A stretch of 64,000 nucleotides of DNA from Sulfurimonas sp. (lineage in GTDB: Bacteria; Campylobacterota; Campylobacteria; Campylobacterales; Sulfurimonadaceae): NCBI RefSeq assembly GCF_023229105.1, contig NZ_JALNZY010000001.1:1938-65937 (forward strand), in the 5' to 3' direction. Positions 27,103 to 49,043 of the stretch are shown one piece after another; the stretch's first letter is position 1; the number at the start of each line of letters is the position of its first letter. The notes under the pieces are model-generated. The model was not told the origin of the DNA, searched no databases, and worked only from the letters and a program-made list of their open reading frames with translations. The position numbers were made by a program, and so were the translations under genes.

Positions 27103-28287
27103 ATGAAATATAGCTGGTTTTTTATATTAAAGATAGTAGTTGTCATGCTATCTGTTAGTGTCTTCGCACAAGGAGCTGTTTTAACAGATGCTGAGAAGTT
27201 TTACGGCACAGAACTCAAAGCATCAAAAAAAGTTCAGCACCCTCCTTTTGAGTGGGGTGACTGTACTGTTTGTCATACGGACGCAAAGGGGGAAGGAGCT
27301 CTTATTATGGATCCTCCTGAGTTATGTGCTATGTGTCATGAAGCAAAAGACACCAAAGCATTTATTCATGGTCCGGTAGCAGCAGGTGCATGTACAGCTT
27401 GCCATAATCCACATGAATCAGATAATGCAAAATTATTAACAGCATCTAGTATAAATGAGCTTTGTGTTTCATGTCATCAAGCTAAAGATGAGTTTATGCG
27501 CAATACCGCAAATATCCACTCGCCAGTAAAAGATCAGTGTATTAATTGCCATGACCCCCATACCGAGGATCATCAGTATCAATTAAAAGCCGATGGTAAA
27601 AAAGATCTCTGTGTTATGTGCCATGTCGATAAAGAAGTTTGGACAAGCACGGTAACAGATAAGCACGGCGCACTTGATAGACCTAGAAAGTGTTTAGAGT
27701 GTCATGATGCGCATGGCTCAGAGGTGCCGATGAATTTGATTAAAAATACTTCAAAAGAGCTCTGTTTGTCATGTCACAGCGAATCATTAACAAGAGATGA
27801 AGACGGTAGTAAGATTCTAAATATAGGAAAACATCTTGAAAATAATCCTGACTGGCATGGTCCTATTCTCTGGGGAGATTGTGCAGCATGTCACAATCCG
27901 CATGGTTCAAATAACTTAAGAATGTTGAACAAGCCGTTCCCTAGAACTTTCTATGATAAGTTTGAAGAGGATAACTATATCTGTTTTCAGTGCCATGAAA
28001 AAGAGAAGATTATGGATGCCAATACAACAACAGCGACAAATTTTAGAAACGGCTCAAACAATATGCACTTTGTACATGTAAACAAAGAAAAAGGTCGCTC
28101 TTGCCGAGCTTGTCATGATTTCCATGGTACAAAAGAGTATCCGCACCACTTAAGAGCAAAGACGAAGTTTGGTAAGATAAACTTCCCTATTCGTTTCATT
28201 GAAACGGAAAACGGCGGTTCATGTGCACCTGCCTGCCACGCTCGCCGTCACTATGACAGAGCAACGCCAAAAGTTAACCTTAAATAA
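27103..28287 (+). CDS. periplasmic dodecaheme cytochrome c (paired-CXXCH type; 11 CXXCH + CX3CH)
   Basis: Signal peptide; repeating H-x-P...CXXCH-xPH...L-CXXCH units; terminal CAPACH. Confidence 0.92.
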   Translation: MKYSWFFILKIVVVMLSVSVFAQGAVLTDAEKFYGTELKASKKVQHPPFEWGDCTVCHTDAKGEGALIMDPPELCAMCHEAKDTKAFIHGPVAAGACTACHNPHESDNAKLLTASSINELCVSCHQAKDEFMRNTANIHSPVKDQCINCHDPHTEDHQYQLKADGKKDLCVMCHVDKEVWTSTVTDKHGALDRPRKCLECHDAHGSEVPMNLIKNTSKELCLSCHSESLTRDEDGSKILNIGKHLENNPDWHGPILWGDCAACHNPHGSNNLRMLNKPFPRTFYDKFEEDNYICFQCHEKEKIMDANTTTATNFRNGSNNMHFVHVNKEKGRSCRACHDFHGTKEYPHHLRAKTKFGKINFPIRFIETENGGSCAPACHARRHYDRATPKVNLK

Positions 28288-28288
28288 A

Positions 28289-29314
28289 ATGAGTTTTAAA
28301 TTTATATACTTATTTCTCTTGTTATTTACCACAATAAGTGGTAATGCGCAAGAGATATCTTCCTTAATACTTCAGCCTCAAGATAAAACACGTTATATTG
28401 GAGAGAGCAGCACTTTTGTAATAAATGCTACGCTTAAAGAGGCAGACTATATAGTTATAGAGCAAAGTGATATAACTACGACATTAGAAATAAAACCGCA
28501 AAAAGATACATACTGTAAAACAATTAACCTCAATCCGGGAGAAAACACTGTTTTTGTTACTCTTTACAAGGATGCAAAACCTATAGGTAAAAGTAGTAGA
28601 GTGCTCTATTTTCTTTCAGAACTTTTTGAGGGAGTTGATGAATATGAGCTTGATGAGTACAAGATAAGATTTTTTCATCAGGATGCCAAAGAGAAGAAGT
28701 GTGCCTCATGTCACAATATGACATCAAATATTCCAACGAATAATGAAGCTCTTGAAGATGTGACAAAAACCACATGTTATGAGTGTCACAACAGCATGAT
28801 AAGTACAAAAAACACACATGCTCCAGCTGCCAACTGGCTTTGCATCAATTGCCATAATGGAAAATTTGGCGAGTATAATATGCAAGATAAAGGCGCTTCA
28901 AAATACTTAGTAGCAGATCCAGTGGCAAAAACTTGTGCAGAGTGTCACGAGGATGTTAAAGAGTGGGAAGAGAGTAAATTTGGACATGGTCCTGTGAATG
29001 ATGGAAGATGTGAGAGGTGTCATAACCCACACGGCTCAGACAACGAGTTTTTTCTAAGAAAATCAATCTGGGAGTTGTGCACTACATGTCATGCTGAAAA
29101 ATCAAATGGACAACATGTTACATCAGCTATAGGTTTTGGTGCACCGAATAAAAGTGGAGGACATCCAACAAGAGATAGAGAAGACCCTGCACGTCCCGGA
29201 AGAGAACTTACTTGTAGCGGATGCCATAACCCGCACGGTTCCGGCGGAATATCTCTGTTAAGAATGAAGGGAACTATGCCTTATGGCGTATGTCAAAGAT
29301 GCCACAAGAAGTAA
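28289..29314 (+). CDS. octaheme cytochrome c with N-terminal non-heme beta-sandwich-like domain
   Basis: Start moved to MSFKFIY at 28289; signal peptide; ~130-aa heme-free region, then 8 CXXCH. Confidence 0.9.
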   Translation: MSFKFIYLFLLLFTTISGNAQEISSLILQPQDKTRYIGESSTFVINATLKEADYIVIEQSDITTTLEIKPQKDTYCKTINLNPGENTVFVTLYKDAKPIGKSSRVLYFLSELFEGVDEYELDEYKIRFFHQDAKEKKCASCHNMTSNIPTNNEALEDVTKTTCYECHNSMISTKNTHAPAANWLCINCHNGKFGEYNMQDKGASKYLVADPVAKTCAECHEDVKEWEESKFGHGPVNDGRCERCHNPHGSDNEFFLRKSIWELCTTCHAEKSNGQHVTSAIGFGAPNKSGGHPTRDREDPARPGRELTCSGCHNPHGSGGISLLRMKGTMPYGVCQRCHKK

Positions 29315-29505: not shown

Positions 29506-30249
29506 ATGATTAGTAATAAAATCAAAGTTATTCTGTTTGCATCAATGTTAGGTGCCTCGTCTGTATTTGCTGGTCCGATTAGTGGTAGTCCGCATGACTT
29601 GTCCGCTCTTGCTGGATTAGATAGTTCAACTGCTGACAATGGGGAGATATGTGTATATTGTCATACGCCTCACGCGGCAAACTCCGCTTTTACAGGTGCG
29701 CCTTTGTGGAACAAGGCTACTCCAGCGGGAACATTTGATATGTATGGTGCAACAATAGCAGGAACAAATACAGAGGCAGCTCCGGCGAGTCCGTCTTTAG
29801 CATGCCTTAGCTGTCATGATGGTGTTAGTGCGATAGACTCTATTGTAAATGCACCCGGTTCTGGTATGAAATCAGTAACTGGATCTAAAGACATAGTAAC
29901 TGGTCTTGCGACTCAGTATGGCGGGAACATAGGTGGTCCGCTAAATGCTACGACTACGGGTAACCCTGATTTGACAAACGATCATCCTGTATCGATTATA
30001 TATACAGAGGGTAAAGCTGGACTTAGAGCGACTACTGTAAATCTTGCAACACTAGGTGATAATATTGCTTGGTTGGGTGCTACAACTATTGGAGATTTGC
30101 TTCGCGGGCCTACAAATGATCAAGTAGAGTGCGGTAGTTGTCATGATCCACATAACGGTGGAAATGATCAAGCAACAGCTACTGAAGTTAACTTCCTTCG
30201 CCATACAAATAAAAACAGCTACCTTTGTCTAGGTTGCCACAATAAATAA
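29506..30249 (+). CDS. secreted tetraheme cytochrome c, OmcE-like (candidate nanowire subunit)
   Basis: Sec signal (SVFA/G); PHDLS, EICVYCHTPH, PLWN, CLSCHDG, DLTNDHPV, VECGSCHDPH, FLR, LCLGCH. This order matches my recollection of Geobacter OmcE. Confidence 0.8.
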   Translation: MISNKIKVILFASMLGASSVFAGPISGSPHDLSALAGLDSSTADNGEICVYCHTPHAANSAFTGAPLWNKATPAGTFDMYGATIAGTNTEAAPASPSLACLSCHDGVSAIDSIVNAPGSGMKSVTGSKDIVTGLATQYGGNIGGPLNATTTGNPDLTNDHPVSIIYTEGKAGLRATTVNLATLGDNIAWLGATTIGDLLRGPTNDQVECGSCHDPHNGGNDQATATEVNFLRHTNKNSYLCLGCHNK

Positions 30250-30253
30250 TATT

Positions 30254-30280
30254 CAGTAGAGAGGTTCTTCCTCCCTGCTG
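30254..30280 (+). terminator. imperfect hairpin terminator after the OmcE-like gene
   Basis: CAGTAGAGAGG-ttctt-CCTCCCTGCTG followed by a T-rich tract. Confidence 0.55.
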
Positions 30281-30306
30281 TCTTCATTTTCCCATTATAC
30301 TTTCTT

Positions 30307-30347: not shown

Positions 30348-31451
30348 ATGAAAATCATCTTTCTTTCAATTCAAGTTATTATAATGTTCTTTTTTCAGGC
30401 TTGTGCTACCAAAGAGGTTGAAGTAGAAAAAATTATAACATTTCCTCAATATCCACAAACACCAAAAATACTGTATCTAACCACATACAGAGGTGGTGCA
30501 AAAGAGGATAAGTCAAGTGCATTAGATGTTTTTTTGGGTGAAAAAAAGAGTGAAAAAAAGGTTTCAAACATCATCAAGCCATATGGTGTTGGACTTCAAG
30601 ATGGCAAAGTGTATGTTGCGGATACAGGTTCGGATGCAGTATTTGTAATAGATGAGAATAGCAGAGAGCTTAAGTTTATAGGCAACGGTATAGTAGGCAG
30701 ACTTGCTGCACCTGTTGGAATTGCATTTGATAGAGATAAAAATTTATATGTAAGTGATTCGCGTGAGAGAAAAATAAACGGCTATAACTTAAACGGAGAG
30801 CTAAATTTTGTTCTTGGGGATAGAATGGAGTTTGCAAGCCCTACGGGAATTGCAGTAGATAAAAAACAGCACAGACTTTATGTTGTAGATACAAAAGCGC
30901 ATCAGTTTAAAGCTTACGATATTGCTACAAAAGAGCTTCTGTATAGCGTAGGTCAAAGAGGCACAAATGATGCAGAGTTTAACTTTCCTACAAACATTGC
31001 AGTAGATCAAAGAAATGGAAATATAGTAGTTGTAGATACACAAAACTTTCGAGTACAAATATTTGATAAAGATGGAAAATTTATAAGCAAGTTTGGAAAT
31101 ATCGGCAATAAGCCGGGAACATTTGCAAGACCAAAAGGTGTCGGTATTGACAGTGAGGGTAACATTTATATAGCTGATAGCGCGTTTAACAATATTCAGA
31201 TATTTGATGAGAAGGGAAGCGCACTGCTTATGTTTTTTGGCGGTGGGGGTTATGGTCCAACTCAGTTTCGTCTAGTTACTGGAGTATATATAGATGAGAA
31301 TGACAAGATAATAGTTGCTGATGGTTTTAGCGGAAGAGTACAGACATTTCAGTATATTAGTGAGAAATGGAAAGAGAACAATCCTCAGAAATATAGTGAA
31401 ATTACTGCTCCTCCAAATCTAGAATCGGATAATAAAACAGAAAAAAAGTAG
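30348..31451 (+). CDS. NHL-repeat (6-bladed beta-propeller) lipoprotein
   Basis: Lipobox FQAC; repeats PYGVG/PVGIA/PTGIA/PTNIA/PKGVG...YVADT, FNFP, NFRVQIFD. Confidence 0.92.
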   Translation: MKIIFLSIQVIIMFFFQACATKEVEVEKIITFPQYPQTPKILYLTTYRGGAKEDKSSALDVFLGEKKSEKKVSNIIKPYGVGLQDGKVYVADTGSDAVFVIDENSRELKFIGNGIVGRLAAPVGIAFDRDKNLYVSDSRERKINGYNLNGELNFVLGDRMEFASPTGIAVDKKQHRLYVVDTKAHQFKAYDIATKELLYSVGQRGTNDAEFNFPTNIAVDQRNGNIVVVDTQNFRVQIFDKDGKFISKFGNIGNKPGTFARPKGVGIDSEGNIYIADSAFNNIQIFDEKGSALLMFFGGGGYGPTQFRLVTGVYIDENDKIIVADGFSGRVQTFQYISEKWKENNPQKYSEITAPPNLESDNKTEKK

Positions 31452-31460
31452 GGTGGGGTT

Positions 31461-32396
31461 TTGAATAAAGTATTTTTAATAGCCGTTTTAGGCACATTTT
31501 TATACGCAGGTAAGATACTGTTACCGGAATCTACGGTTGCAGTTGTCAATGGTACTGCTATTTCAGTAGATGAGAGAGACAAAGAGGTTGGAAAACTGCT
31601 TCCAAAAGCATATTTTCACTCAAGCGTAAATGCTGAAAAGCTAAAAGATTTACAAGAAAAAGCACTGGAAACATTGATTGAAAAAACACTGCTTTATACT
31701 TATGCTGTTTCAAAAAATATAAAAACAAGTGAGAGTGAAGTAGATGAAGTTATGACAAATCTCGCTGCAACTTACGGCTCTAAAGAAAAGCTAGAAGAAG
31801 CAGTGAAGCAGCTTGGATTTACAAAAGAGACTTTTAGAGAAGTTGTTAAAAAAGATGAAACACTAAAAAAACTTTATAAAAAAGAGATAAAGAGTGATAT
31901 TAGCGATAGAGCGCTAAGAGACTATTATGAAAAAAATAGCTACAAATTTAAAGAACCTGAAAAGATAAGAGTTAGACTGATACATATAAGAAACAACCCT
32001 GAAGATCCAGAAGGCAAAAGCAAAGCAAAAAAGAGAGTTGATGATGCAATGGCAGAGATAAAAAAGGGGACTCCTTTTGCAGATGTAGCGGCAAAATACT
32101 CTACTGCTATGAGCCGCATTAAAGGCGGAGATATGGGATTCCTTCATAGAGGAAGACTGGAAGTAGCGGTTGAAGATGCTGCTTTTTCTATGGAAATTGG
32201 GCAAACAAGTGAGATTATAGAACAAGATATCGGTTTTTTTATAGTAAAAGTGGAAGATAAAGCCCTATCAAATCAGCTCTCTTTTGAAGAAGTCAAAGAT
32301 GGACTTAAGAAGGATTTAAAAACCAAAGAAGAAGATGAAAAAAAAGCAAAACTACTTGAGAGGCTAATGCTAAATTCGGTGATTGTGAAACAATAG
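31461..32396 (+). CDS. periplasmic parvulin-type peptidyl-prolyl isomerase / SurA-PrsA-like chaperone
   Basis: VAVVNGTAIS SurA-N pattern; VRLIHI, FADVAAKYS, KGGDMGF rotamase motifs. Confidence 0.9.
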   Translation: MNKVFLIAVLGTFLYAGKILLPESTVAVVNGTAISVDERDKEVGKLLPKAYFHSSVNAEKLKDLQEKALETLIEKTLLYTYAVSKNIKTSESEVDEVMTNLAATYGSKEKLEEAVKQLGFTKETFREVVKKDETLKKLYKKEIKSDISDRALRDYYEKNSYKFKEPEKIRVRLIHIRNNPEDPEGKSKAKKRVDDAMAEIKKGTPFADVAAKYSTAMSRIKGGDMGFLHRGRLEVAVEDAAFSMEIGQTSEIIEQDIGFFIVKVEDKALSNQLSFEEVKDGLKKDLKTKEEDEKKAKLLERLMLNSVIVKQ

Positions 32397-32397
32397 C

Positions 32398-34179
32398 GTG
32401 TTACAAAAAAAAACCCTATGTTGCCTCTGTCTAACCCTTGCATTAGTCTCAAGGCTTGCGGCAAATGATTATCCCGATGGTGGACTTTATGGAAGCCTAA
32501 ATTATCTATATATTCAAGATGATTATACCAATAGCGGAAGAGAGAACTCAAAAGAGAACTTTTTACAAGAGTATAAAATGGGGTACAAAGGCAATATCTA
32601 TAGTCCACGTCTGCTTGACTACTCACTTGAAGGTCTTATTAGATTTGATACAGAAAAACTTCAAAGAGACAAAGAGACATCAAAGCGTAAAACTTACGGG
32701 GAAGATTATAAAGCATATCTTGATTTTATCAAAGACACAAAAGTTCCTTTTACTATTTATGCGAATAAAACACAAAGACCGGTAAATACGGTTTATAGCG
32801 CTTACTCAACAAATTATCAGTATGAGACAAGCGGCGAGGGAGTAACCGGTTCTTTAAAATTTGAACCGTATATGGTTACATATGGGGCTACTACAATAAA
32901 AACAGTGGCAGAGTTCAGCGACAGACTGCAAGATTCTCGAACTACAACTTACAGTAGTTCATTTCGTTATAACAAAGAAAAGCATAACGTACAAGCAAAC
33001 TATTCACACTCCATATTGGAAAATGAACAAAACTATATTAACGATGAAATTACGAGCATTAATCAAGTCAAAGATATATTTGCAATATCTCATAACTGGA
33101 AAGCTTCTGATGCTTTTAATATAGATTCTACTGCATCATATGAAAATGATGAATATTATGCAAGAGAGACTATGGATGCAGGCGTGAATCTAAACTATAG
33201 ACCAAAAAATGCCGACTATGACACTTACTTATCGTTTCTTGGAACGACAATGGAGTATGGAGATTTAACAGGGGGTGAAAAATATATTTTTGACTCGTTA
33301 AACATTAATCAAGGAGTTAACTACAGGGTAACTCCGAGTATTACTTTATCAGAGTCTGCCATGGCATATTTATATGATAGCACGACCTCAAGTGGCAGCA
33401 ATTCGTATGTTAATTTAGATGCTACTCACAACTATGCAACTACTATATTTTCAGATGTTTCTTTTACTCTTGTAAGCAGGGTGGGTGTGCAAAAAAATGA
33501 TTCTATAGTAAAAACCATCTTAGATGCAAACTCAACCACTACAAAAACAAGTACAGAGAGATATAACATTCAGCTCACCGCTAGAGGGAGAAAAAATTTC
33601 CCTTCTATCAATTCAAATTTAAATATAGACAGTGGCTACTATCACTCTTTGTACTCTACAAAAAGAGAAGAGCAGAGATATAACTTTGGGCTCTATTTTT
33701 TGTCAAAAATTTTTAGTATCGTAAATAATAATATTACTGCCAGATACAGTCATACAAATACTATCCCTGCGCCTTCTTTAATTACGCCAGAAGGAAGAAG
33801 CAGCTATTCAACGACAAATATAATGGAGTCTTTAGATTTTCATTTTAGACTTGGCGCAAGAGGACGAATCAGATTTAGAGTTGGAGCAGAATATGTAAAC
33901 ACAAAAACTGATAATGAAACCAACAGCCGTGTTGACCCAAGAGCAGAGATGAATATGAACTATAGGTTTTTCAATAACTGGATGTTTGATGCTTCCGCAA
34001 GGATAAACGAAGCATACAATACTCTTGAGCATTCAGGAAATGCAAATTTGACATTCAAAGCAGGAAAAACTAGTTTTTTAATGGGATATCAGTATAATAA
34101 GAGTGAGATAGAGAGTGTTTTAAACACAATACAAAATGAGCGTTCAACTTTTAGAGTACAGTTGACGCGGACATTTTAA
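32398..34179 (+). CDS. large outer-membrane beta-barrel protein (porin-cytochrome conduit or secretion pore candidate)
   Basis: GTG start, signal peptide, Tyr/Asn/Ser-rich alternating strands throughout, C-terminal FRVQLTRTF beta-signal, no CXXCH. Confidence 0.8.
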   Translation: MLQKKTLCCLCLTLALVSRLAANDYPDGGLYGSLNYLYIQDDYTNSGRENSKENFLQEYKMGYKGNIYSPRLLDYSLEGLIRFDTEKLQRDKETSKRKTYGEDYKAYLDFIKDTKVPFTIYANKTQRPVNTVYSAYSTNYQYETSGEGVTGSLKFEPYMVTYGATTIKTVAEFSDRLQDSRTTTYSSSFRYNKEKHNVQANYSHSILENEQNYINDEITSINQVKDIFAISHNWKASDAFNIDSTASYENDEYYARETMDAGVNLNYRPKNADYDTYLSFLGTTMEYGDLTGGEKYIFDSLNINQGVNYRVTPSITLSESAMAYLYDSTTSSGSNSYVNLDATHNYATTIFSDVSFTLVSRVGVQKNDSIVKTILDANSTTTKTSTERYNIQLTARGRKNFPSINSNLNIDSGYYHSLYSTKREEQRYNFGLYFLSKIFSIVNNNITARYSHTNTIPAPSLITPEGRSSYSTTNIMESLDFHFRLGARGRIRFRVGAEYVNTKTDNETNSRVDPRAEMNMNYRFFNNWMFDASARINEAYNTLEHSGNANLTFKAGKTSFLMGYQYNKSEIESVLNTIQNERSTFRVQLTRTF

Positions 34180-34192
34180 AGGGGAAAAAGAG

Positions 34193-35203
34193 ATGAAAAT
34201 TTTTTTATATATGCTGGTTTTTATAGGGGGCTTCAATACTTTTTATGCTCAAGAGAGAGTAAAATTGGTATGGCCACCGCCGCCGGATGAGGCCAAAATA
34301 GAGTTTGTCTCTTCTATCCATAATTCTGATGATTTAGGGATAAAAAAAGGTTTTTTTTCAAAGGCTTTTGATTTTTTATTCGGTAAAGAGGAGAGAAGCC
34401 TCCGAGCTCCGTTTGGTGTTCACGCTCATGAAGAGAGAGTTTATACGACCGATATAGCTACAAAATCACTCTATATATTTGATAAAAAAAAGAATAATAT
34501 GATTACGATTAGCGGTTCTAAAAAGGAGCAGTTTTTATATCCTATAGATATTACGACTGATGAGAGTGGAAATATTTATGTCTCAGACTCCGTAAGAGCT
34601 AAAATATATGTCTTTGAAAAAGATGGAGATTACAAATACTCTATAGAGCCAAAAATGCTGCAAAGACCGGTTGGAATTGCTATAAGCCCAGATAAAAAAC
34701 TCTATATCGTAGATGCGCTCTCAAGCCAGATACACGTAACTTCTCTAAAAGGGGACTACTTAGGATCTATCGGCAAAAACGGCACAGGCGATGGAGAGTT
34801 TAACAGACCTACCTTTATGGATATCGGTCATGATGGAAAGCTTTATGTGTCTGACTCTATGAATCATCGTGTGCAGATACTCGGTAGTGATGGAGGGTTT
34901 ATAGATAAATTTGGTAAGTTAGGGCAAGAGATAGGGAACTTTGGTAGTCCTAGGGGTATCTCGATAGATAGTGATGAGAATATTTATGTATGTGATACGA
35001 TGTTTAACAATATACAGATTTTTAATCAAAAAAAAGAGCTATTAATGGTGCTTGGTCGTTATGGAGATAAAAGAGGCGAATTTGCCCTAGCAGAAGATAT
35101 TTCAATAACAAAAGATAATATAATATATGTAACAGATACCAATAATAACCGCATTCAACTCTTTAAGCTTATTAACTCAGCACAGATAAGGAGTTTAAAA
35201 TGA
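34193..35203 (+). CDS. second NHL-repeat beta-propeller protein
   Basis: Signal peptide; PFGV/PIDI/PVGI/RPT/PRGI repeats, GEFNRP, NHRVQI, NNRIQLF. Confidence 0.92.
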   Translation: MKIFLYMLVFIGGFNTFYAQERVKLVWPPPPDEAKIEFVSSIHNSDDLGIKKGFFSKAFDFLFGKEERSLRAPFGVHAHEERVYTTDIATKSLYIFDKKKNNMITISGSKKEQFLYPIDITTDESGNIYVSDSVRAKIYVFEKDGDYKYSIEPKMLQRPVGIAISPDKKLYIVDALSSQIHVTSLKGDYLGSIGKNGTGDGEFNRPTFMDIGHDGKLYVSDSMNHRVQILGSDGGFIDKFGKLGQEIGNFGSPRGISIDSDENIYVCDTMFNNIQIFNQKKELLMVLGRYGDKRGEFALAEDISITKDNIIYVTDTNNNRIQLFKLINSAQIRSLK

Positions 35204-37260
35204 AATCTTTAATAATTACTTTATTGGTTTTTTTGTTTTTTTCAACCATTGAGTCGGCAGCCTCGATTGTAAATACAAAGCATAACCTCTCGGTAACAAG
35301 TGCTGTAGGAAACATAAAAGCTACGAGTGAAACTGAGGTTTGCGTCTTTTGTCATATACCGCATTTCTCACAGACTATTGGAAAGCCGCTTTGGAACAGA
35401 AGTATGCCCACAACAGACTATGTTATGTATGATAGTGATTATCTAAGACGGATGGGTTACCCTTCAATTGCCTCAGACCTTGGCTCGGCAAATGATACTC
35501 CGGGGGCACTCTCTCGTCAATGTCTTAGTTGTCATGATGGAACGATTGCCGTCGGTGCAGTCTCAAAACTTAGACGTGATTATGATGGCTCCTCAACAAT
35601 AGATATGAGCGGTGATGCCCCCGATGGAACCATACCCGATACAGCAGTAGGATTTATAGGCGCGGATCTCTCAAATCATCATCCCGTAGGAGTTGTCTAT
35701 GACCCGACAATAAGTAAAACCTTTGGCAATGGCGGAATCCGCTCAATGGAGCTAAAAGCAATACCAGACGCTCCTATAAAACTTTATGAGTATGCAGGAT
35801 ACAGCGGAAAATATGTAGAGTGTTCCTCCTGCCATAATCCGCATAAAGAGAATAGTAAGTTTTTACACTATGACAGCGGGGCAAACCATGGGCAAAATTT
35901 TGTAGGCACATGTACATCTTGTCATGAAAAAACGGATTGGACAGGGAGTGTGCACCAAAATCCTCCAGGTAATCCAACATATACCGATGCAGAACTTATT
36001 GCAAGATATGGAACTGGTGCTGTAAAAGAGCTTGGGTGTGCAAATTGTCATGTGCCTCACAACGGGGAGGGTGTAGGATACTTAAATAGACAGGTTAACG
36101 AGCAGACATGTTTTCAAGGAGCTGCCTCTACTGAGGGTGGTGCTGCTTGTCATGGTGTCGGCGGGGCAAAAGATATAAAGTCTATTTTAAGCAGATTATA
36201 TACTCATCCTGTCTTGGCGGAGGATAATATTGTGGGAACTCAGCATACAAATCTTGATACGCTCTATGGAACAGGCAATCTTGACCCGCTTGCTATAAAA
36301 GGGATGGACTGGGAAACAAATAAACATGCTGTTTGTATGGATTGTCACAATCCGCACCGTGCACGTGCCGGCACACATATAGTTGACGGTTCATGGTATG
36401 GCGTGCCCGGAGGATCTACAAATCTTGTCTCAAATGTACTTAAGGGAGTCTCCGGTATTGAGCCAACATGGCCGCCAGAATGGACACAGCCGACTACATT
36501 TACAACCATGGAGAGTTCAGAGAAGGAGTACCAAATCTGTTTTAAATGTCACTCATATTGGGGAATAGGTCTTGTAGCTAATAAATATGCTCCTTCAACT
36601 TATACTTCAGCAGGCGGTACTTTGCTTACGGATGTGGCATGGGAGATGAATATAAACAATAAATCTGGACACCCTGTTGTTATAAATTCTCTTGGAAGAA
36701 GTGGTGCTTATGCTCCAAAGGAGCTTGATACAATTCAGCTGCTTACGCCGTGGAAAGAGAATCCAGGGCTTAACACTATGTACTGTTCTGATTGTCACGG
36801 AGCCGATAATGAGCTTGGAGGCGACCCAAAAGGTCCTCATGGCTCAAACTTAAAGTATATTCTTAAAGGTGTAAATCAACACTGGCCGATGAAGCCAGAT
36901 GGTATTACTCTTTACACTATGGATGATTTGAAAAACAATACTGCCCAAGAGCTATTTTGCGCAAACTGCCATGACCCTAAGGAGCCACATACTACATGGT
37001 GGAATAAGATGGCAAACAAAGGTTACCAATGCGTTCAGTGCCATGTAGCAATACCGCATGGTTCTTCTGTTTCTAGACTGGTTGGATATCAGGGTTGGCC
37101 GGCGCCATATAATTATCAAGGGAATAAGTTGACTATGATTGGATATCGAAAAAATGCTTACACGCTTGTTGACCCGCGGGATGCATATGCTACGCATGCA
37201 GGTGGTGGCAGCTGTCATACCACAAATGCCGGTGGTTATGACTTGAACTTGATGCCGTAG
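35200..37260 (+). CDS. secreted multiheme cytochrome c: OmcE-like tetraheme module plus C-terminal extension (10 CXXCH + CX12CH)
   Basis: Signal peptide; SIVNTKHNLS...EVCVFCHIPH...PLWNR...CLSCHDG...DLSNHHPV...VECSSCHNPH...FL...CTSCH, then 7 further sites. Confidence 0.85.
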   Translation: MKSLIITLLVFLFFSTIESAASIVNTKHNLSVTSAVGNIKATSETEVCVFCHIPHFSQTIGKPLWNRSMPTTDYVMYDSDYLRRMGYPSIASDLGSANDTPGALSRQCLSCHDGTIAVGAVSKLRRDYDGSSTIDMSGDAPDGTIPDTAVGFIGADLSNHHPVGVVYDPTISKTFGNGGIRSMELKAIPDAPIKLYEYAGYSGKYVECSSCHNPHKENSKFLHYDSGANHGQNFVGTCTSCHEKTDWTGSVHQNPPGNPTYTDAELIARYGTGAVKELGCANCHVPHNGEGVGYLNRQVNEQTCFQGAASTEGGAACHGVGGAKDIKSILSRLYTHPVLAEDNIVGTQHTNLDTLYGTGNLDPLAIKGMDWETNKHAVCMDCHNPHRARAGTHIVDGSWYGVPGGSTNLVSNVLKGVSGIEPTWPPEWTQPTTFTTMESSEKEYQICFKCHSYWGIGLVANKYAPSTYTSAGGTLLTDVAWEMNINNKSGHPVVINSLGRSGAYAPKELDTIQLLTPWKENPGLNTMYCSDCHGADNELGGDPKGPHGSNLKYILKGVNQHWPMKPDGITLYTMDDLKNNTAQELFCANCHDPKEPHTTWWNKMANKGYQCVQCHVAIPHGSSVSRLVGYQGWPAPYNYQGNKLTMIGYRKNAYTLVDPRDAYATHAGGGSCHTTNAGGYDLNLMP

Positions 37261-37267
37261 GTGTAAG

Positions 37268-37807
37268 ATGAGATTTTTTTTATTAATATTACTATTTTTA
37301 GTGCAGCTTTGTTTTGCTAGCTCAAATGTAAATGATGATAAACGCATAAAAGATTCGTTGTTGAAATATAACTATGGAATCATCAAGATGACAAATAGCG
37401 GCAATACAAAACTTTTAAAAGATATGCTCTCTCAAGAGGTATATTTTAAGTTGATGGTTTGGGCAGACTCTTGGAAGTTCAGCAATCTTGCCATGGTTGC
37501 GCAGATAAATGACTTAAGGTTCTCTCCGATTGCTTACAATGAGAATAATGCCACCATAAGAACTATGGAGAACTGGACATTTGGGTATGCTGACTTGGTA
37601 AAGAGAGATTATGCATTAAAACCTATGACAATCTTTTATAAGATGAAATATACGCTAAAAAAACATCATGGGGAGTGGATAATAGTTGCTGTTGAAAATC
37701 TTCAAGAGGAGGTTTTTACGGAGCCAAATACGCATGAGACATCTTTGCTAGAAAAAAAAGAGAAGCCAAAAGAGGAGGCTGTGCAAGGAAAAATAGAGAC
37801 ACATTAA
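37268..37807 (+). CDS. exported hypothetical protein, NTF2/SnoaL-like fold suspected
   Basis: Signal peptide; ATIRTMENWTFGY...YKMKYTLKKHHGEWIIVAV pattern. Confidence 0.55.
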   Translation: MRFFLLILLFLVQLCFASSNVNDDKRIKDSLLKYNYGIIKMTNSGNTKLLKDMLSQEVYFKLMVWADSWKFSNLAMVAQINDLRFSPIAYNENNATIRTMENWTFGYADLVKRDYALKPMTIFYKMKYTLKKHHGEWIIVAVENLQEEVFTEPNTHETSLLEKKEKPKEEAVQGKIETH

Positions 37808-44378: not shown

Positions 44379-45008
44379 GTGCAAAAAGATGATATGAGAA
44401 TAGAAAGAAAGAGAAAATACTCTTTTGGAATAAGGGTTATAATTGCTCTTATAGTAGGTGGAGTAGTTGTAGGGATGGGAACATCTTTTGTTACGGTCAT
44501 TGCAGTAAAGCATACGTCAGACGTAAACTTTTGTGGTTCTTGCCACTCTATGAAGCCTATGGCTGATGCTTATAGAAATAGTGTTCATGGTGGGTACGGT
44601 GATAGCGGTATTATGGCTACTTGTGCGGATTGTCACTTGCCACATGAATCTACTCTTGGTTATATGGTACAGAAGGTTAAGACCGGTATGTGGGATGTGT
44701 GGGTTGAGACTACGCACGATACTTCAAAAATTGATTGGCATGAGCGTCGCAGAGAGCGTCGTAACTGGGTTTATGATAGTGGATGTCTGCATTGTCATGA
44801 AAACTTATTACGCGGTACCCGACCAAATAAAAAGGCATTTACTGCTCATAAAGCCTATTTCTCTGAAAAACTTTTAGTTGAAGGTGAAGATGGGAAAGAG
44901 CGTGCAAAGTGTGTTGATTGTCACAGAAATGTAGGTCACTATCAACTAGAAAAACATCTTCCGCCACCGCCAGTGGAAGTATATAATGAAAATAATAAAA
45001 AGCATTAA
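44379..45008 (+). CDS. NapC/NirT family membrane-bound tetraheme quinol dehydrogenase (CymA/NrfH-like)
   Basis: GTG start; N-terminal TM helix; TSDVNFCGSCHSM, CADCHLPH, CLHCH, CVDCH..VGH. Confidence 0.93.
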   Translation: MQKDDMRIERKRKYSFGIRVIIALIVGGVVVGMGTSFVTVIAVKHTSDVNFCGSCHSMKPMADAYRNSVHGGYGDSGIMATCADCHLPHESTLGYMVQKVKTGMWDVWVETTHDTSKIDWHERRRERRNWVYDSGCLHCHENLLRGTRPNKKAFTAHKAYFSEKLLVEGEDGKERAKCVDCHRNVGHYQLEKHLPPPPVEVYNENNKKH

Positions 45009-45014
45009 GGAGAT

Positions 45015-45539
45015 ATGATGGAACAAAAATATATTAAACCAACTATTATTGTGGGTGTGCTTGTTATCATTATCATTCTGCTTGCTATGTCAAATGCTGG
45101 TGAAAAGTTTGTGCGTTTAGGAAAAATTGGGGAGCAGATTGCAACCAATCTTGCTAATGCAAGTCATGGAGATCCTCGTTCTCTTAAAGAGATGGACAAA
45201 GAACGAATAAAAGCTACTACGGGTAGCTCTCATACCGTAGATGTCAGTGAGTTGCCAAAGGCATTTCTCCCACTCAAAGAGCATGGGCATCCACCTTTTA
45301 CCCTGGGTGCGTGTAACGTATGTCATGCTTCAAGAACAGATAAGCCCGCTGCAATTACGACTCGTACGGTAGCTGAGCTTTGTTACACATGTCATTATCC
45401 AAAAGAGGAAATTGATAAGCGTATGGCTGCACTAGATTGTAATAAGTGTCACAGCCCTCATCACGCAGATAGGGAAAAACTTGTGCGAAATAAAGTTATT
45501 GAAAAAGAGTGTCCAGTAGGTGAATTTCAATCAAACTAA
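45015..45539 (+). CDS. membrane-anchored triheme cytochrome c
   Basis: N-terminal hydrophobic helix; CNVCH, CYTCH, CNKCH; HPPF.LGAC motif shared with the dodecahemes. Confidence 0.85.
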   Translation: MMEQKYIKPTIIVGVLVIIIILLAMSNAGEKFVRLGKIGEQIATNLANASHGDPRSLKEMDKERIKATTGSSHTVDVSELPKAFLPLKEHGHPPFTLGACNVCHASRTDKPAAITTRTVAELCYTCHYPKEEIDKRMAALDCNKCHSPHHADREKLVRNKVIEKECPVGEFQSN

Positions 45540-45583
45540 TAGTTTGATTGAAATTTGGTAGTTAAAAAACACGAGGTATAGTA

Positions 45584-47104
45584 ATGAAACAAAATATGAC
45601 AAAAATAATAATAACAGTGTTGGTATTAGCACTGAGTGTATTCTTATTTCAGTCATATGGTGTTGCTGATAAGCTGAGTCGCTTTGTTACTATAATGGGT
45701 AATATAACAAATAGTCTTAAAAATGCCAAACATGCCTATGAAGAGGTTAATTTTACTATAAGCGATGATGAATTAAAAGATGTCAATATCACTAAACTTG
45801 CCCAAGAGTTTAAAAGTTCTATTGATAAGAAAAAAGAGGCTCTTGTTCTTGCTATAAAAGCACCGCCAGAGATTCAAGTTGATGAGATTAGAGAAGAAGA
45901 GATCCCAACACACACTAAAACACAAACAATAAAAGCAAAAATTGTTAAGATGGAAGATTTACCTGCAAAATTCAAACCGCTTAAGCAGTATCTTCATGAA
46001 CCATTTAAGATGGGAGCATGCCAAATCTGCCATACATCAAAGAATAATAAACCCGGAGAGCTGGTTAAGAAAAATATTTCTGAGATATGTTATGAATGTC
46101 ACAAGACTCGCTACACAAAAAAGTTTGATCATAAACCTGCAAAAGATGGACGATGCATGGACTGTCATGATCCGCATCAGTCAAATACAAAAAAGTTACT
46201 AAAGGCTGAGTCTGTAAATACCCTATGTCTGAAGTGCCATGACCGCAAAAGCACATTCAGTGCAAAAGCAGAAAAGCTGTTTGTCAACATGGACTTGGCG
46301 GTTAAGCATAAGCCTATTGTAGAAAAGAGTTGTTTAGAGTGTCACGATGCACATACGGCAGATCACAAATCACTCCTTTCTCTTGATGCAAAGATGGATT
46401 TATGTTTGGATTGCCATGATACAATTAAAGAAAAAATAACTCATGCAAAGTTTAAACATGGTGGTGTAAATACAAGTGAGAAGCGCTGTTTAGAGTGTCA
46501 TGATCCGCATGCTACAAAACATGTTAAACTGCTTAAAAAAGACCCGGTTGCTACATGTTTAAAGTGCCATGACAAAGAAGTAAAGTCTGATGAAGACGGC
46601 GGAATGCTTATGAATATGAAAAAGCATCTAGACGAAAATCCAAATTGGCACAAACCAATAAAAGATGTTAAAAAAGAGGGAGGATGTTCAGCTTGTCACG
46701 ATCCACACGGTTCAGATAACTTTAGCATTCTAAGAAAATCTTTTACGCAAAACTTTTATGCTGATTTGGCAAATAAAGAGTTTTTTTGTTTTAAGTGTCA
46801 CACAGAGAAAAAAATTACAAAACAGTTTATCACTACTTCACAGGAGCACAATATTACTGCGTTTAGAGACGGCGAGGTAAATCTGCACTACCTACATGTA
46901 AACGATAGAAAAGGGCGTGCATGTAGAGCTTGTCATGATGAACATGCTTCTAAATACAAGCATCTTATAAGGGACTATACCGATTTTAACGGTATAAAAT
47001 TTCCGCTTAGGTTTAAAGAGAGTGCTGAGGGTGGTTCTTGTGCTCCTGCTTGTCATAAAGAGTTTGCTTATGACCGTGTTAATCCAAAAGGGATAGGAAA
47101 GTGA
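45584..47104 (+). CDS. membrane-anchored dodecaheme cytochrome c (11 CXXCH + CX3CH), paralog of 27103-28287
   Basis: N-terminal TM helix and ~110-aa heme-free stalk, then paired-CXXCH units ending GGSCAPACH. Confidence 0.92.
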   Translation: MKQNMTKIIITVLVLALSVFLFQSYGVADKLSRFVTIMGNITNSLKNAKHAYEEVNFTISDDELKDVNITKLAQEFKSSIDKKKEALVLAIKAPPEIQVDEIREEEIPTHTKTQTIKAKIVKMEDLPAKFKPLKQYLHEPFKMGACQICHTSKNNKPGELVKKNISEICYECHKTRYTKKFDHKPAKDGRCMDCHDPHQSNTKKLLKAESVNTLCLKCHDRKSTFSAKAEKLFVNMDLAVKHKPIVEKSCLECHDAHTADHKSLLSLDAKMDLCLDCHDTIKEKITHAKFKHGGVNTSEKRCLECHDPHATKHVKLLKKDPVATCLKCHDKEVKSDEDGGMLMNMKKHLDENPNWHKPIKDVKKEGGCSACHDPHGSDNFSILRKSFTQNFYADLANKEFFCFKCHTEKKITKQFITTSQEHNITAFRDGEVNLHYLHVNDRKGRACRACHDEHASKYKHLIRDYTDFNGIKFPLRFKESAEGGSCAPACHKEFAYDRVNPKGIGK

Positions 47105-48036
47105 TATCTGCTTATGATTTTGCAAAAGCTTTTATAGCGTTGGCTATATTTTTCACAGGCGCTTTTGCAGAAGATGGGTTTATGCAGGTACTCACTCCAA
47201 AACAGAACCATCTTCAAACTGAGTTGACGCTAAATGTTGTTTTAGAGATAGACAAAAAAAGAGTAGATATCATTAAAATAATGACTCCCTTAGAGGAGAT
47301 AGAGATAGATATGAAAAGCCAAAAAAATACAGAGTGCAAAAACATTCAGCTGAGACTCGGTGAAAACAGAGTTGATATTAGAGCCTATAAAGAGAATGTT
47401 TTAGTAGCTCAAGAGAATAGAGATGTTTATGTCTCATCAGAGCTTTATCATCAGTTTAGGTATCCGCCACAAGAGTATAGCCATACTTATTTTCACAATA
47501 AAGATAATGAGAAACTTTGTGCAAAATGTCACGACATGAGTGTGAATGAAGTAAGTGGTGTGGCATTTGAGGATATTACAAAATCAAACTGTTATGGATG
47601 TCACAAGAGTATAAACAAAGAGAAGTATGCTCATGCCCCTTCGGCAAACTGGCTATGTACTAGCTGTCATATACAGAGCAAAAAAGGTGTCTCCAAATAT
47701 CTCACAAAAGAGCCTATTAATGCTTCATGTTTTGAGTGTCACGAGGAGAACAAAGAGTTATGGGGTAATGCAAAATATCGCCATGAACCATTGGATTCAG
47801 GACACTGCGAGAAGTGTCATAATCCTCACTCCGGTCCCTACATCATGTTTATACGCAAAGATGTAAACCTGATATGTCTGGGATGCCATAAAGATAAGCA
47901 TATAAAAGCGCAGCAGAGCAAAAATTCTGCATGTAGTGGTACTAGCGAGGGGGGCTTATGTATAGAGTGCCATACGCCGCATGCGTCAAATCAGCCGTTT
48001 TTTCTAAAAAAGAGATTTGAGAGAGTTGTAAAATGA
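47101..48036 (+). CDS. heptaheme cytochrome c with N-terminal beta-sandwich-like domain
   Basis: GTG start, signal peptide, 7 CXXCH; paralog of 28289 and 48033. Confidence 0.88.
   Translation: MISAYDFAKAFIALAIFFTGAFAEDGFMQVLTPKQNHLQTELTLNVVLEIDKKRVDIIKIMTPLEEIEIDMKSQKNTECKNIQLRLGENRVDIRAYKENVLVAQENRDVYVSSELYHQFRYPPQEYSHTYFHNKDNEKLCAKCHDMSVNEVSGVAFEDITKSNCYGCHKSINKEKYAHAPSANWLCTSCHIQSKKGVSKYLTKEPINASCFECHEENKELWGNAKYRHEPLDSGHCEKCHNPHSGPYIMFIRKDVNLICLGCHKDKHIKAQQSKNSACSGTSEGGLCIECHTPHASNQPFFLKKRFERVVK
47530..47625 (+). repeat. 96-bp direct repeat, copy 1
   Basis: 94/96 identical to 48465-48560. Confidence 0.9.
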
Positions 48037-49043
48037 GAAGGTATATCTGCATAAAATATATACTCTCTTTACTGTTCTGCTCTTTCTTGCTTTTTGCGCA
48101 GGATGAAACAGGATTCAGATTGCTTAATCCGCAAATCTCTAGTATAAATGAAGAGAGGATTGCTTCATTTGTGATTGAGGCTGATAGCCAAAAAATAGAT
48201 TTTATTTCAATAACGACAGATGCAAACAAGACGTTTAGCATTGAGGTTAATGAGGAGCGCTCACACTACTGTAAAAGTATAAATCTTCATATTGGGCTAA
48301 ACAGTATAAAAGTGGCAGGCTACAAAAATGCTTTAGTTATAAAAGAGCAGAGCAGAGAGCTCTTTTTTGTATCAAAAGTTGACAAAGATTTTAGATACCC
48401 GCCAGAGGGGTATAGCAAAAAACATTTTCATAACCAAGAGAATGAGAAGCTATGTATAAAATGCCACGACATGAGTGTGAATGAAGTAAGTGGCGTGGCA
48501 TTTGAAGATATTACAAAATCAAACTGTTATGGATGTCACAAGAGTATAAACAAAGAGAAGCACTCACATGCACCATCGGTAAATTGGCTCTGCACATCTT
48601 GTCATAACGGTGAGGTAGGAGTGTTTAATAAGGCAGATAAAGATAGGACAAAATATAGTGTTCCAGATCCGATAGAGGGAGTTTGCTTCTCCTGCCATAA
48701 AAAATATAAAGAGGAGTGGAGCAAAAAAAGGTTCCATCATGAGCCTGCGGAGTCCGGACGCTGCAATAGGTGTCATAATGCACACTCATCGCTTAGCGAG
48801 TTTTACCTAAAAAAGCCTTCTTGGGAGCTCTGTACAGATTGTCATAAAGATAAAATTGAGGGGATGCATATTGTTAAAACATTTGGGAGAAAAGCGCATC
48901 CGACCCATAATGTAAAAGATCCCTCCAGAGAAGGCAAGGATTTAAGCTGTACAAGTTGTCATAACCCGCATGCCTCAAACGCGCCATCTCTTCTACAGAG
49001 TGAAACCAGCATGGGGCTCTGCTCCCGTTGCCATAAAAAATAA
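48033..49043 (+). CDS. octaheme cytochrome c with N-terminal beta-sandwich-like domain
   Basis: Signal peptide, 8 CXXCH; same layout as 28289-29314 (HAP..NWLC, GHP/AHPT...DP.R.G..L.C). Confidence 0.9.
   Translation: MRRYICIKYILSLLFCSFLLFAQDETGFRLLNPQISSINEERIASFVIEADSQKIDFISITTDANKTFSIEVNEERSHYCKSINLHIGLNSIKVAGYKNALVIKEQSRELFFVSKVDKDFRYPPEGYSKKHFHNQENEKLCIKCHDMSVNEVSGVAFEDITKSNCYGCHKSINKEKHSHAPSVNWLCTSCHNGEVGVFNKADKDRTKYSVPDPIEGVCFSCHKKYKEEWSKKRFHHEPAESGRCNRCHNAHSSLSEFYLKKPSWELCTDCHKDKIEGMHIVKTFGRKAHPTHNVKDPSREGKDLSCTSCHNPHASNAPSLLQSETSMGLCSRCHKK
48465..48560 (+). repeat. 96-bp direct repeat, copy 2
   Basis: 94/96 identical to 47530-47625; both differences are synonymous. Confidence 0.9.

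Follow-up and report, generated by a model that had tools for sequence, protein, structure and literature searches.

The 64,000-nucleotide stretch of Sulfurimonas sp. DNA analysed here (the window) carries on its forward strand a gene cluster resembling the one that encodes OmcE, the subunit of a cytochrome filament of Geobacter sulfurreducens, and within it lies the gene for a 686-amino-acid (aa) undecahaem cytochrome, here called the long cytochrome, which we consider a candidate end-piece of such filaments (Table 1). The ATG of this gene is preceded at 8 nucleotides (nt) by an AAGGAG Shine-Dalgarno sequence and overlaps the stop codon of the upstream NHL propeller gene by 4 nt (ATGA), an overlap through which the two genes are predicted to be translationally coupled. 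All 23 cysteines of the protein fall in one of ten CxxCH motifs (C48, C108, C208, C238, C280, C379, C447, C529, C587 and C611), in a C304-X12-C317-H318 motif or in a terminal C672-H673 motif, and we read the product as a Sec-secreted c-type cytochrome with 4 + 7 = 11 secure haem sites and possibly 12 haems. An earlier note on this DNA had described an OmcE-like front module followed by an extension of about seven haems. This description stands: the open reading frame (ORF) is exact, the front part is homologous to OmcE (PDB 7tfs) and seven haem sites follow it. The motifs on which it drew are all present, namely SIVNTKHNLS, C48VFCH-IPH, PLWNR, C108LSCHDG, SNHHPV, C208SSCHNPH, KFL and C238TSCH in the front part, and C280ANCH, C304-X12-C317H, C379MDCH, C447FKCH, C529SDCH, C587ANCH, C611VQCH and the terminal C672H thereafter.

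We conclude that the resemblance of residues 22-246 to OmcE reflects true homology and not chance, because sequence, profile and structure comparisons all lead to the same protein. (i) With phmmer, the long cytochrome matched G. sulfurreducens OmcE (7tfs) over residues 7-223 (E 5.3e-22) and a filament-forming OmcE homolog of 16 chains, PDB 9yuq, over residues 5-244 (E 5e-17); the latter is presumably the Desulfuromonas soudanensis OmcE of the bioRxiv preprint considered below. (ii) A profile of the long-cytochrome family matched OmcE with an E value of 6e-33. (iii) An AlphaFold2 model built from 106 diverse sequences (predicted local distance difference test score, pLDDT, 87.7; predicted template-modelling score 0.88) had 7tfs as its sole significant Foldseek match in the PDB (E 1e-7, target-normalised template-modelling score 0.69, 230 columns), the match to OcwA being insignificant; a model based on 29 close homologs only reached a pLDDT of 44 and was not used. 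Pfam and NCBIfam returned nothing but generic multihaem motifs for the long cytochrome. The module thus compared shares with OmcE (GSU0618, and that of D. soudanensis) its sequence, its fold, the four CxxCH motifs, the distal histidines and the N-terminal KH arm. In fact, the mature N-terminus, SIVNTKHNLS, aligns in the same register with ASIKNTKHDLS of OmcE (consensus [AS]-I-x-N-T-K-H-N-L-S), and the distal-histidine positions H28, H55, H161 and H215, in the motifs N-terminal KH, CH-x-PH, xHPV and CH-xx-H respectively, are kept, with the four CxxCH motifs, in 60-62 of the 62 homologs carrying this N-terminal module (N-module), on which all conservation counts given here are based. The same part of the protein is 31% identical to a 247-aa paralog encoded in the window, the short cytochrome. 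Neighbour-joining placed the N-modules of the long proteins together in a single clade (61 tips), apart from the co-resident short paralogs and with G. sulfurreducens OmcE inside it; the pattern is compatible with one ancient origin, and the placement of OmcE should not be over-read.

Here the likeness to OmcE ends. OmcE has about 230 aa, whereas the chain of the long cytochrome runs on past haem 4 and does not fit the single-domain form of the family (about 210-290 aa), which ends one or two residues past the fourth CxxCH: after H242 there are 444 more residues with seven haem sites. The first part of this extension is a connector that includes the C304-X12-C317-H318 site. The equivalent column is a canonical CxxCH in Proteobacteria, Acidobacteriota and Elusimicrobia, CX4CH in Ignavibacteriota, Bacteroidota and Chlorobi, CX7CH in Syntrophales, and CX11, CX13 or CX16 in other clades, a range of loop lengths from 2 to 16 residues. 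Because CxxCH, CX4CH or CX7CH occupies this column elsewhere, we take the motif, on the alignment, for a true haem site whose loop can lengthen. Long-loop cysteine pairs of this kind also occur in OmcZ (CX14CH) and MccA (CX15CH), proteins that are not homologous to the long cytochrome; in OmcZ the motif belongs to haem 1 and its loop lies in the subunit interface (PMC9473688).

The second part, a C-terminal module (C-module) with haems 7-11, has a distribution of its own. Residues 246-686 had 958 relatives among the 1.8 billion representative proteins searched, and the last ~310 residues (about 373-680) recur C-terminally in giant multihaem proteins of 1000-3800 aa, some of them with fibronectin-III domains, as well as in stand-alone proteins of 370-500 aa. 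Examples of the giants, both from metagenomes and with the module at or near the C-terminus, are P0241 (3811 aa) and P0148 (1830 aa, with fibronectin-III domains). No Pfam family spans the C-module, and the 440 residues that follow the OmcE-like part had no match in the PDB, either by sequence (phmmer, profile) or by fold (Foldseek). With hhalign, residues 372-594 are colinear with residues 41-245 (probability 96.8%, E 2.7e-10, 176 columns), pairing C379xxCH-NPH386 with C48xxCH-IPH55, C447xxCH with C108xxCH, GH491PV with HH161PV, C529xxCH with C208xxCH and C587xxCH with C238xxCH. Unrelated multihaem families used as controls reached a similar probability and E value through paired CxxCH motifs, but over at most 75 columns (default settings). 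We therefore offer as no more than a suggestion that the protein may consist of an OmcE-like unit, a two-haem connector, a second and diverged OmcE-like unit, one further haem and a tail.

The tail carries the terminal C672-H673, the lone SCH that the earlier note had listed after the haem motifs of the extension. The motif is present and conserved; as a secure haem site it does not hold, and it is better described as a degenerate C-Xn-C(H) tail. In most close relatives a second cysteine stands 3-9 residues before the terminal CH (for example, PxCGGGxxCH), where the window protein has an alanine, and in distant clades the motif becomes C-X6-C-X2-H or loses its histidine. A single-cysteine twelfth haem at this position was considered and not retained as secure, the cysteine and histidine being apart, or the histidine missing, in these distant clades; a disulfide plus a ligand histidine is, from the alignment, as likely as a twelfth haem. 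Each of the ten CxxCH motifs is kept in 60-62 of the 62 homologs. As to the ligands, twelve non-proximal histidines (H28, H55, H161, H215, H252, H287, H349, H376, H386, H491, H547 and H620) are present in 60-62 of the homologs, and position 336 is His or Met among them, which brings the conserved non-proximal histidines to at least 13. With 11 haem sites, this means that the histidines of the long cytochrome could ligate its 11-12 haems internally and leave one spare to donate to a neighbour.

The family is neither local nor recent. Full-length relatives of ~690 aa and 50-84% identity are found in Sulfurimonas, other Campylobacterota, Nitrosophilus alvini and Persephonella, and a scan of one genome per species identified relatives in at least 580 species of about 10 phyla, including Nitrospirota, Syntrophales, Ignavibacteriota, Bacteroidota, Chlorobi, Elusimicrobia, Acidobacteriota, and Alpha- and Gammaproteobacteria. 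The Sulfurimonas of the window itself stems from groundwater or landfill metagenomes, and the sequencing runs listed for it are all of DNA. The word 'fusion', used of this protein in the earlier note, is apt for its two-part architecture and not for a special or local event, since the ~690-aa family is old and widespread. Database names for it are generic ('cytochrome c3 family protein'), and our literature search found no paper describing it.

We then compared the surroundings of 80 related loci, limiting each count to those with enough flanking sequence. At 55 of 58 loci the gene immediately 5' of the long one encodes an NHL protein, and the closest genomic partner of the long cytochrome is this directly upstream propeller, not the barrel. 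Of the 40 loci whose upstream flank measures 7 kb or more, 39 have a short OmcE-like ORF (210-304 aa, mostly with four CxxCH), and these span about 10 phyla, so the long protein is not commonly found without a short partner, as the earlier note's proposal of a shared filament would have it. By contrast, relatives that have the C-module and lack the OmcE module show neither a short OmcE-like gene (0/8) nor an adjacent NHL gene (0/8). These eight variants, all from Nitrospirota (L060, L062, L064, L065, L067, L068, L073 and L075), have a different N-terminus and match the long cytochrome from about residue 184-280 on, most of them from 280; the one at L060 adjoins proteins with 26, 15 and 6 CxxCH motifs. 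The usual order of the loci with the complete protein is short OmcE, NHL, peptidyl-prolyl isomerase (PPIase), a 550-670-aa protein, NHL and long cytochrome, often followed by ResB and CcsA.

Table 1. The long cytochrome, its parts and the surrounding gene cluster (positions in the window)
Feature	Position	Strand	Remarks
Small cytochrome c	26724	+	Member of the cluster
Two multihaem cytochromes upstream of the short cytochrome	27103..29314	+	Homologs at G. sulfurreducens omcE, 36% and 28% identity
DmsE/MtrA-like cytochrome, 394 aa, 11 CxxCH	27103	+	TIGR03508, E 1e-34
8-CxxCH cytochrome, about 340-371 aa	about 28292 to 29314	+	Listed TTG start at 28199
Short OmcE-like tetrahaem cytochrome, 247 aa, presumed major filament subunit	29506..30249	+	7tfs, E 1.6e-22, full length
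Intrinsic-terminator-like hairpin with T-rich tail, directly after the short gene	30254..30293	+	-23.4 kcal/mol, z -4.4
NHL propeller lipoprotein, 367 aa	30348..31451	+	Lipobox FFQAC; Pfam NHL, E 2e-30
SurA/PpiC-type PPIase, 311 aa	31461..32396	+	Pfam Rotamase_3, E 3e-21; SurA_N_3
Secreted protein, 593 aa, presumed outer-membrane beta-barrel	32398..34179	+	Ends ...LTRTF; assignment from C-terminal Phe and position
NHL six-bladed propeller, 336 aa	34193..35203	+	Signal peptide, no lipobox; Pfam NHL, E 5e-28
Long cytochrome, 686 aa, undecahaem	35200..37260	+	ATG start; ORF and translation
Predicted Sec signal peptide, residues 1-21, MKSLIITLLVFLFFSTIESAA	35200..35262	+	No lipobox Cys; cleavage site judged by eye
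OmcE-like tetrahaem module, residues 22-246	35263..35937	+	Haems 1-4 at C48, C108, C208, C238
Connector, residues 247-365	35938..36294	+	H252, haem 5 (C280ANCH, H287) and haem 6; H252 etc. invariant in 62/62 homologs
Non-canonical haem site C304-X12-C317-H318, CFQGAASTEGGAACH	36109..36153	+	Invariant in 62/62 homologs
C-terminal module, residues 366-686	36295..37257	+	Haems 7-11 at C379, C447, C529, C587, C611; from sequence
Terminal C672-H673	37213..37218	+	C in 60/62, H in 56/62 homologs
Secreted protein, 179 aa, 7 nt downstream of the long cytochrome	37268..37807	+	No family or PDB match
Fused CcsBA (ResB + CcsA), system II cytochrome c synthase, 1052 aa	37903..41061	+	Pfam ResB, Cytochrom_C_asm; TIGR03144

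The cluster in the window is homologous to that of G. sulfurreducens omcE, with which it has in common two multihaem cytochromes, an NHL protein, OmcE, a large presumed barrel and resB/ccsA; the order there is purHDE, ppcA, resB, ccsA, multihaem (370), multihaem (330), NHL, omcE, a 752-aa protein and glycosyltransferases. The NHL gene beside omcE is 34% identical to the 367-aa NHL lipoprotein of the window. The 593-aa protein, for which Pfam, NCBIfam and the PDB gave no match, has a C-terminal Phe and a position equivalent to those of the 752-aa protein and only weak similarity to it (E 0.03), and we infer that it is the outer-membrane barrel. Within 10 kb on either side of omcE there is nothing like the C-terminal extension of the long protein. 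Judged by gene content, the system in the window is thus an OmcE-type cluster to which a conserved pair, NHL and long cytochrome, has been added.

The arrangement of the two OmcE-like genes differs in a way that bears on their roles. A terminator directly after the gene is typical of major subunit genes of the pilin or flagellin type. Directly behind the short gene of the window is a terminator-like hairpin, 3' of which follows an extended -10-like element, TTTGTTATAAT; in Sulfurimonas this element is TGTTATAAT-like. A GC hairpin occupies the same place in 10 of 12 relatives across phyla, including a Nitrospirae metagenome-assembled genome (MAG), with stems that differ in sequence and a position that is constant (L001, L002, L003, L039, L004, L005, L011, L016, L023 and L028); the T-run is clear in most of the ten, and the other two of the 12 have long gaps and were not folded. 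A scan for consensus promoters and terminators performed at chance level. The genes from 30348 to 37807, on the other hand, are spaced by -4 to 13 nt, and the earlier note's proposal that the long gene is co-transcribed with the barrel, propellers and chaperone, and not with the short paralog, is consistent with this tight spacing and with the hairpin; to that extent it may be kept as a prediction. A terminator after the short gene, with the long gene packed among assembly genes, is the layout expected for a major and a minor subunit. The short paralogs themselves stop exactly 2 residues past the last CxxCH in 61 of 64 cases, which suggests that their C-terminal haem-4 face is sterically constrained and intolerant of extension.

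What is known of OmcE filaments gives these features a possible meaning. In OmcE and OmcS filaments a histidine of one subunit ligates a haem of its neighbour (PMC9473688); OmcE-type subunits have four haems and four distal histidines, one of which serves the neighbour (bioRxiv 10.1101/2025.10.22.684050; PMC12203936), and a review gives haem 2 as the acceptor in OmcE (PMC12203936). Petersen et al. (bioRxiv 10.1101/2025.10.22.684050) expected a stopper to be OmcE-like with an extra histidine and a tip to be OmcE-like with more haems, and found no gene for either in the omcE operons of Desulfuromonadia. We propose that the long cytochrome is a minor, polar end-subunit or adaptor, a cap or anchor, of the OmcE-type filament, and assign this reading a probability of roughly 0.45, somewhat short of even odds.

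In this proposal the 247-aa short cytochrome would be the major polymerising subunit, and the long cytochrome would be made alongside the assembly proteins (NHL propellers, PPIase and barrel). Because its N-module has kept the N-terminus of mature OmcE along with all four haems and all four distal histidines, that module could dock on the filament as a normal subunit does, by the haem-1/N-terminal side. Past haem 4, the chain would run through the invariant H252 into seven haems, its own extension filling the haem-4 face; with that face self-occupied, the protein would therefore be a polar end-piece restricted to one end of the filament, whose haem chain it would lengthen by roughly 11 haems. 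The favoured site is the cell-proximal end: by analogy with chaperone-usher terminators, the long cytochrome would be the last subunit added, and would lie at this end if the filament grows from its base. There the extension would connect to the barrel and pass electrons between the filament and multihaem cytochromes of the outer membrane or periplasm, the co-translated NHL propeller being its partner. The distal tip is nearly as likely. Incorporation into the filament, polarity and location are all deductions from sequence.

The chaperone-usher analogy was raised for OmcE filaments by Petersen et al. (bioRxiv 10.1101/2025.10.22.684050), and the long cytochrome may extend it: minor pilins of the PapH/FimH type are likewise paralogs of the major subunit whose genes lie with those for assembly, and the terminators among them keep the donor element and have an altered acceptor face, which places them at one end of the polymer. 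This is an analogy only, with no homology, and the coupling would be different, with histidine-haem ligation and haem stacking in place of donor-strand exchange. Additional paralogs of a nanowire subunit are also known from the osc operon of G. sulfurreducens, where OmcT, OscC and OmcJ, paralogs of OmcS, are encoded beside OmcS and propeller, PPIase and channel genes, according to PMC13194489 (citing Shen et al. 2025); these belong, however, to the unrelated OmcS family, and are of OmcS size and not extended fusions. Similar in gene content and order are two islands of Desulfovibrio ferrophilus IS5, DFE_0448-0451 and DFE_0461-0465, which contain multihaem cytochromes, NHL propellers and a PPIase and serve as FeGenie 'iron reduction' markers; the NHL gene DFE_0463 is directly upstream of DFE_0464, a 'predicted extracellular' cytochrome, and homologs are reported from Aquificales (PMC5815863, PMC8322314, PMC9769857, PMC7005843). 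The islands were compared by their published description, and the D. ferrophilus proteins were not among the 120 matches listed in any of our searches; islands and window cluster may be the same system.

Several points weigh against the end-piece proposal. (i) The OmcE filaments of G. sulfurreducens and D. soudanensis form without a long protein, as the G. sulfurreducens locus and the preprint indicate, and since G. sulfurreducens does so the long protein is no universal requirement for OmcE polymerisation. (ii) One locus with full flanks, L057, has the NHL and long genes and no short partner, and another, L013 (10 kb of flank downstream and only 3.4 kb upstream), has neither NHL nor short partner. 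(iii) H160, a candidate for the predicted 'ninth histidine' of a stopper, was rejected as clade-specific: it is His in 33 of the 62 homologs (the Campylobacterota/Aquificota/Nitrospirota clade) and Asp elsewhere. (iv) The self-capped face is a prediction for which the donor histidine and acceptor haem are taken solely from the review. (v) Deletion mutants of the D. ferrophilus islands, which are possibly related to our cluster, still reduced Fe(III) oxide (PMC9769857).

The proposal can also be put in a bolder form, in which the long cytochrome is the missing terminal subunit: two OmcE-like units joined covalently by a two-haem connector, with an N-terminal histidine arm for docking on the last short subunit and the opposite face self-capped, would set the polarity and length of the filament and wire it to the outer-membrane conduit or to a mineral or partner cell. 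We hold this bolder form to be rather unlikely. If true, it would be the first cap or anchor identified for any cytochrome nanowire, and the C-module, which also ends giant multihaem proteins, would qualify as a 'nanowire docking' domain of general use.

The alternative that survives best is that the long cytochrome works outside the filament, as an independent electron-transfer protein that forms, with its NHL partner, a separate periplasmic or surface unit and owes its OmcE module to ancestry only; its task might be to feed the barrel as a charging cytochrome, or to work by itself at the surface as a reductase or oxidase. NHL and long gene are indeed the tightest pair of the cluster, and at L057 the pair exists without a short partner; the C-module occurs in many architectures that lack the OmcE module, Geobacter OmcE filaments do without the long protein, and the long cytochrome has a Sec signal only, with no evident surface-sorting feature. 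What such a unit leaves unexplained is why the short gene accompanies the complete protein at 39 of 40 loci and the module-less variants at none of eight, and why the N-terminal arm and four distal histidines of OmcE are so strictly kept. We consider an independent unit possible but doubtful.

That the long protein polymerises on its own, head to tail, is improbable. The result would be a thicker nanowire with 11 haems per subunit, in which the N-terminal arm ligates the haem at the C-terminal end of the preceding subunit. The colinearity of the C-module with the OmcE-like module, which may offer an OmcE-like haem-4 face plus one haem, the conserved C-terminal C/H tail as a potential acceptor site and the solitary long gene at L057 can all be read in this way. 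Nevertheless, the histidine count suggests that no haem is open, the hhalign evidence relating C- and N-module is not above the controls, the long gene lacks the terminator-flanked, first-in-cluster layout of the short gene, for which a polymer is the better supported fate, and a near-obligate short partner points to a heteromeric role.

We see as little chance for a transient role, in which the long cytochrome would act with NHL and PPIase as a template or nucleator for polymerisation of the short subunit without being kept in the finished wire. Its gene does lie amid those for chaperone-like proteins (PPIase, NHL) and is coupled to that of NHL, and the biogenesis of OmcS is reported to depend on a propeller as well as on a PPIase and channel proteins (Shen et al. 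2025, as cited in PMC13194489); but eleven conserved haems would be costly for a mere chaperone, and the continuous sites of bis-histidine type point to electron conduction. A catalytic multihaem enzyme of the NrfA/OTR/HAO type, finally, is very improbable, since the weak local match to NrfA (profile, residues 164-300, E 4e-5) and those to the NrfH and DmsE models cover paired CxxCH motifs only and are far under the family cut-offs, there is no CxxCK or other open-site motif, the conserved histidines suffice for all haems, and Foldseek found no enzyme.

It is explicitly an open question in the field what initiates and ends a cytochrome nanowire, what fastens it to the cell and how its electrons reach minerals or partners, and for OmcE-type wires the long cytochrome is, by its sequence and setting, the best available candidate for an end-piece. 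A conserved OmcE-like protein with seven extra haems inside OmcE-type clusters is a concrete target for modelling and purification, the more so as some of its carriers (Nitrosophilus alvini, Persephonella) appear to be cultured. Clusters with the long protein occur in Campylobacterota, Aquificota, Nitrospirota, Ignavibacteriota/Bacteroidota, Acidobacteriota, Proteobacteria and others, and extend the OmcE-type machinery of extracellular electron transfer to sulfur- and hydrogen-oxidising bacteria of groundwater and vents. The C-module defines, in addition, a new multihaem module common to the long cytochrome and to giant cytochromes.

Some observations on the neighbouring genes may be added. 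The listed TTG start of the 8-CxxCH cytochrome would overlap the 394-aa gene by 89 nt; an ATG at ~28292 (MSFKFIYLFLLLF..., signal-peptide-like) is likelier and gives about 340 aa. Homologs of the 179-aa protein are encoded at 25 of the related loci (Campylobacterota, Aquificota and Nitrospirota), in most cases immediately 3' of the long gene. Farther downstream (44379-49043, + strand) is a second multihaem cluster, in which a 209-aa tetrahaem quinol dehydrogenase of the NapC/NirT type is followed by 3-, 11-, 7- and 8-haem cytochromes; together with the OmcE-type cluster it apparently provides, within the window, a complete path leading from the inner membrane to the cell exterior.

Of 37 loci, 23 have a ccsA or ccsBA gene no more than 6 kb downstream of the long gene. 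System II genes are found beside OmcE-type clusters in Campylobacterota, Aquificota, Nitrospirota, Syntrophales, Proteobacteria and Geobacter, as a fused CcsBA in the window and as separate ResB and CcsA elsewhere (L028, L042, L077, L079; L081, 3911-6148). A dedicated haem lyase of the MccA/CcsA1 type for the CX12CH site was considered and rejected: ccsA or ccsBA also stand downstream of the long gene in clades with the canonical CxxCH (L051, L052, L074-L080) and are absent in CX4CH clades, and resB-ccsA accompanies Geobacter omcE where there is no long protein. Their linkage does not track the non-canonical CXnCH motif.

The short genes vary as well. Eight of the co-resident short OmcE-like ORFs have five CxxCH motifs (for example, L028, 16231-16896), and fit the 5-haem OmcE-like group that Petersen et al. 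(bioRxiv 10.1101/2025.10.22.684050) put forward as a potential family of leaky nanowires. A Persephonella MAG (L021, 2172-13620) has three short OmcE-like ORFs, of 234, 214 and 244 aa; its long gene is called as an ORF of 960 aa, against the usual ~690, and either an extension or a merger with the following gene may account for this.

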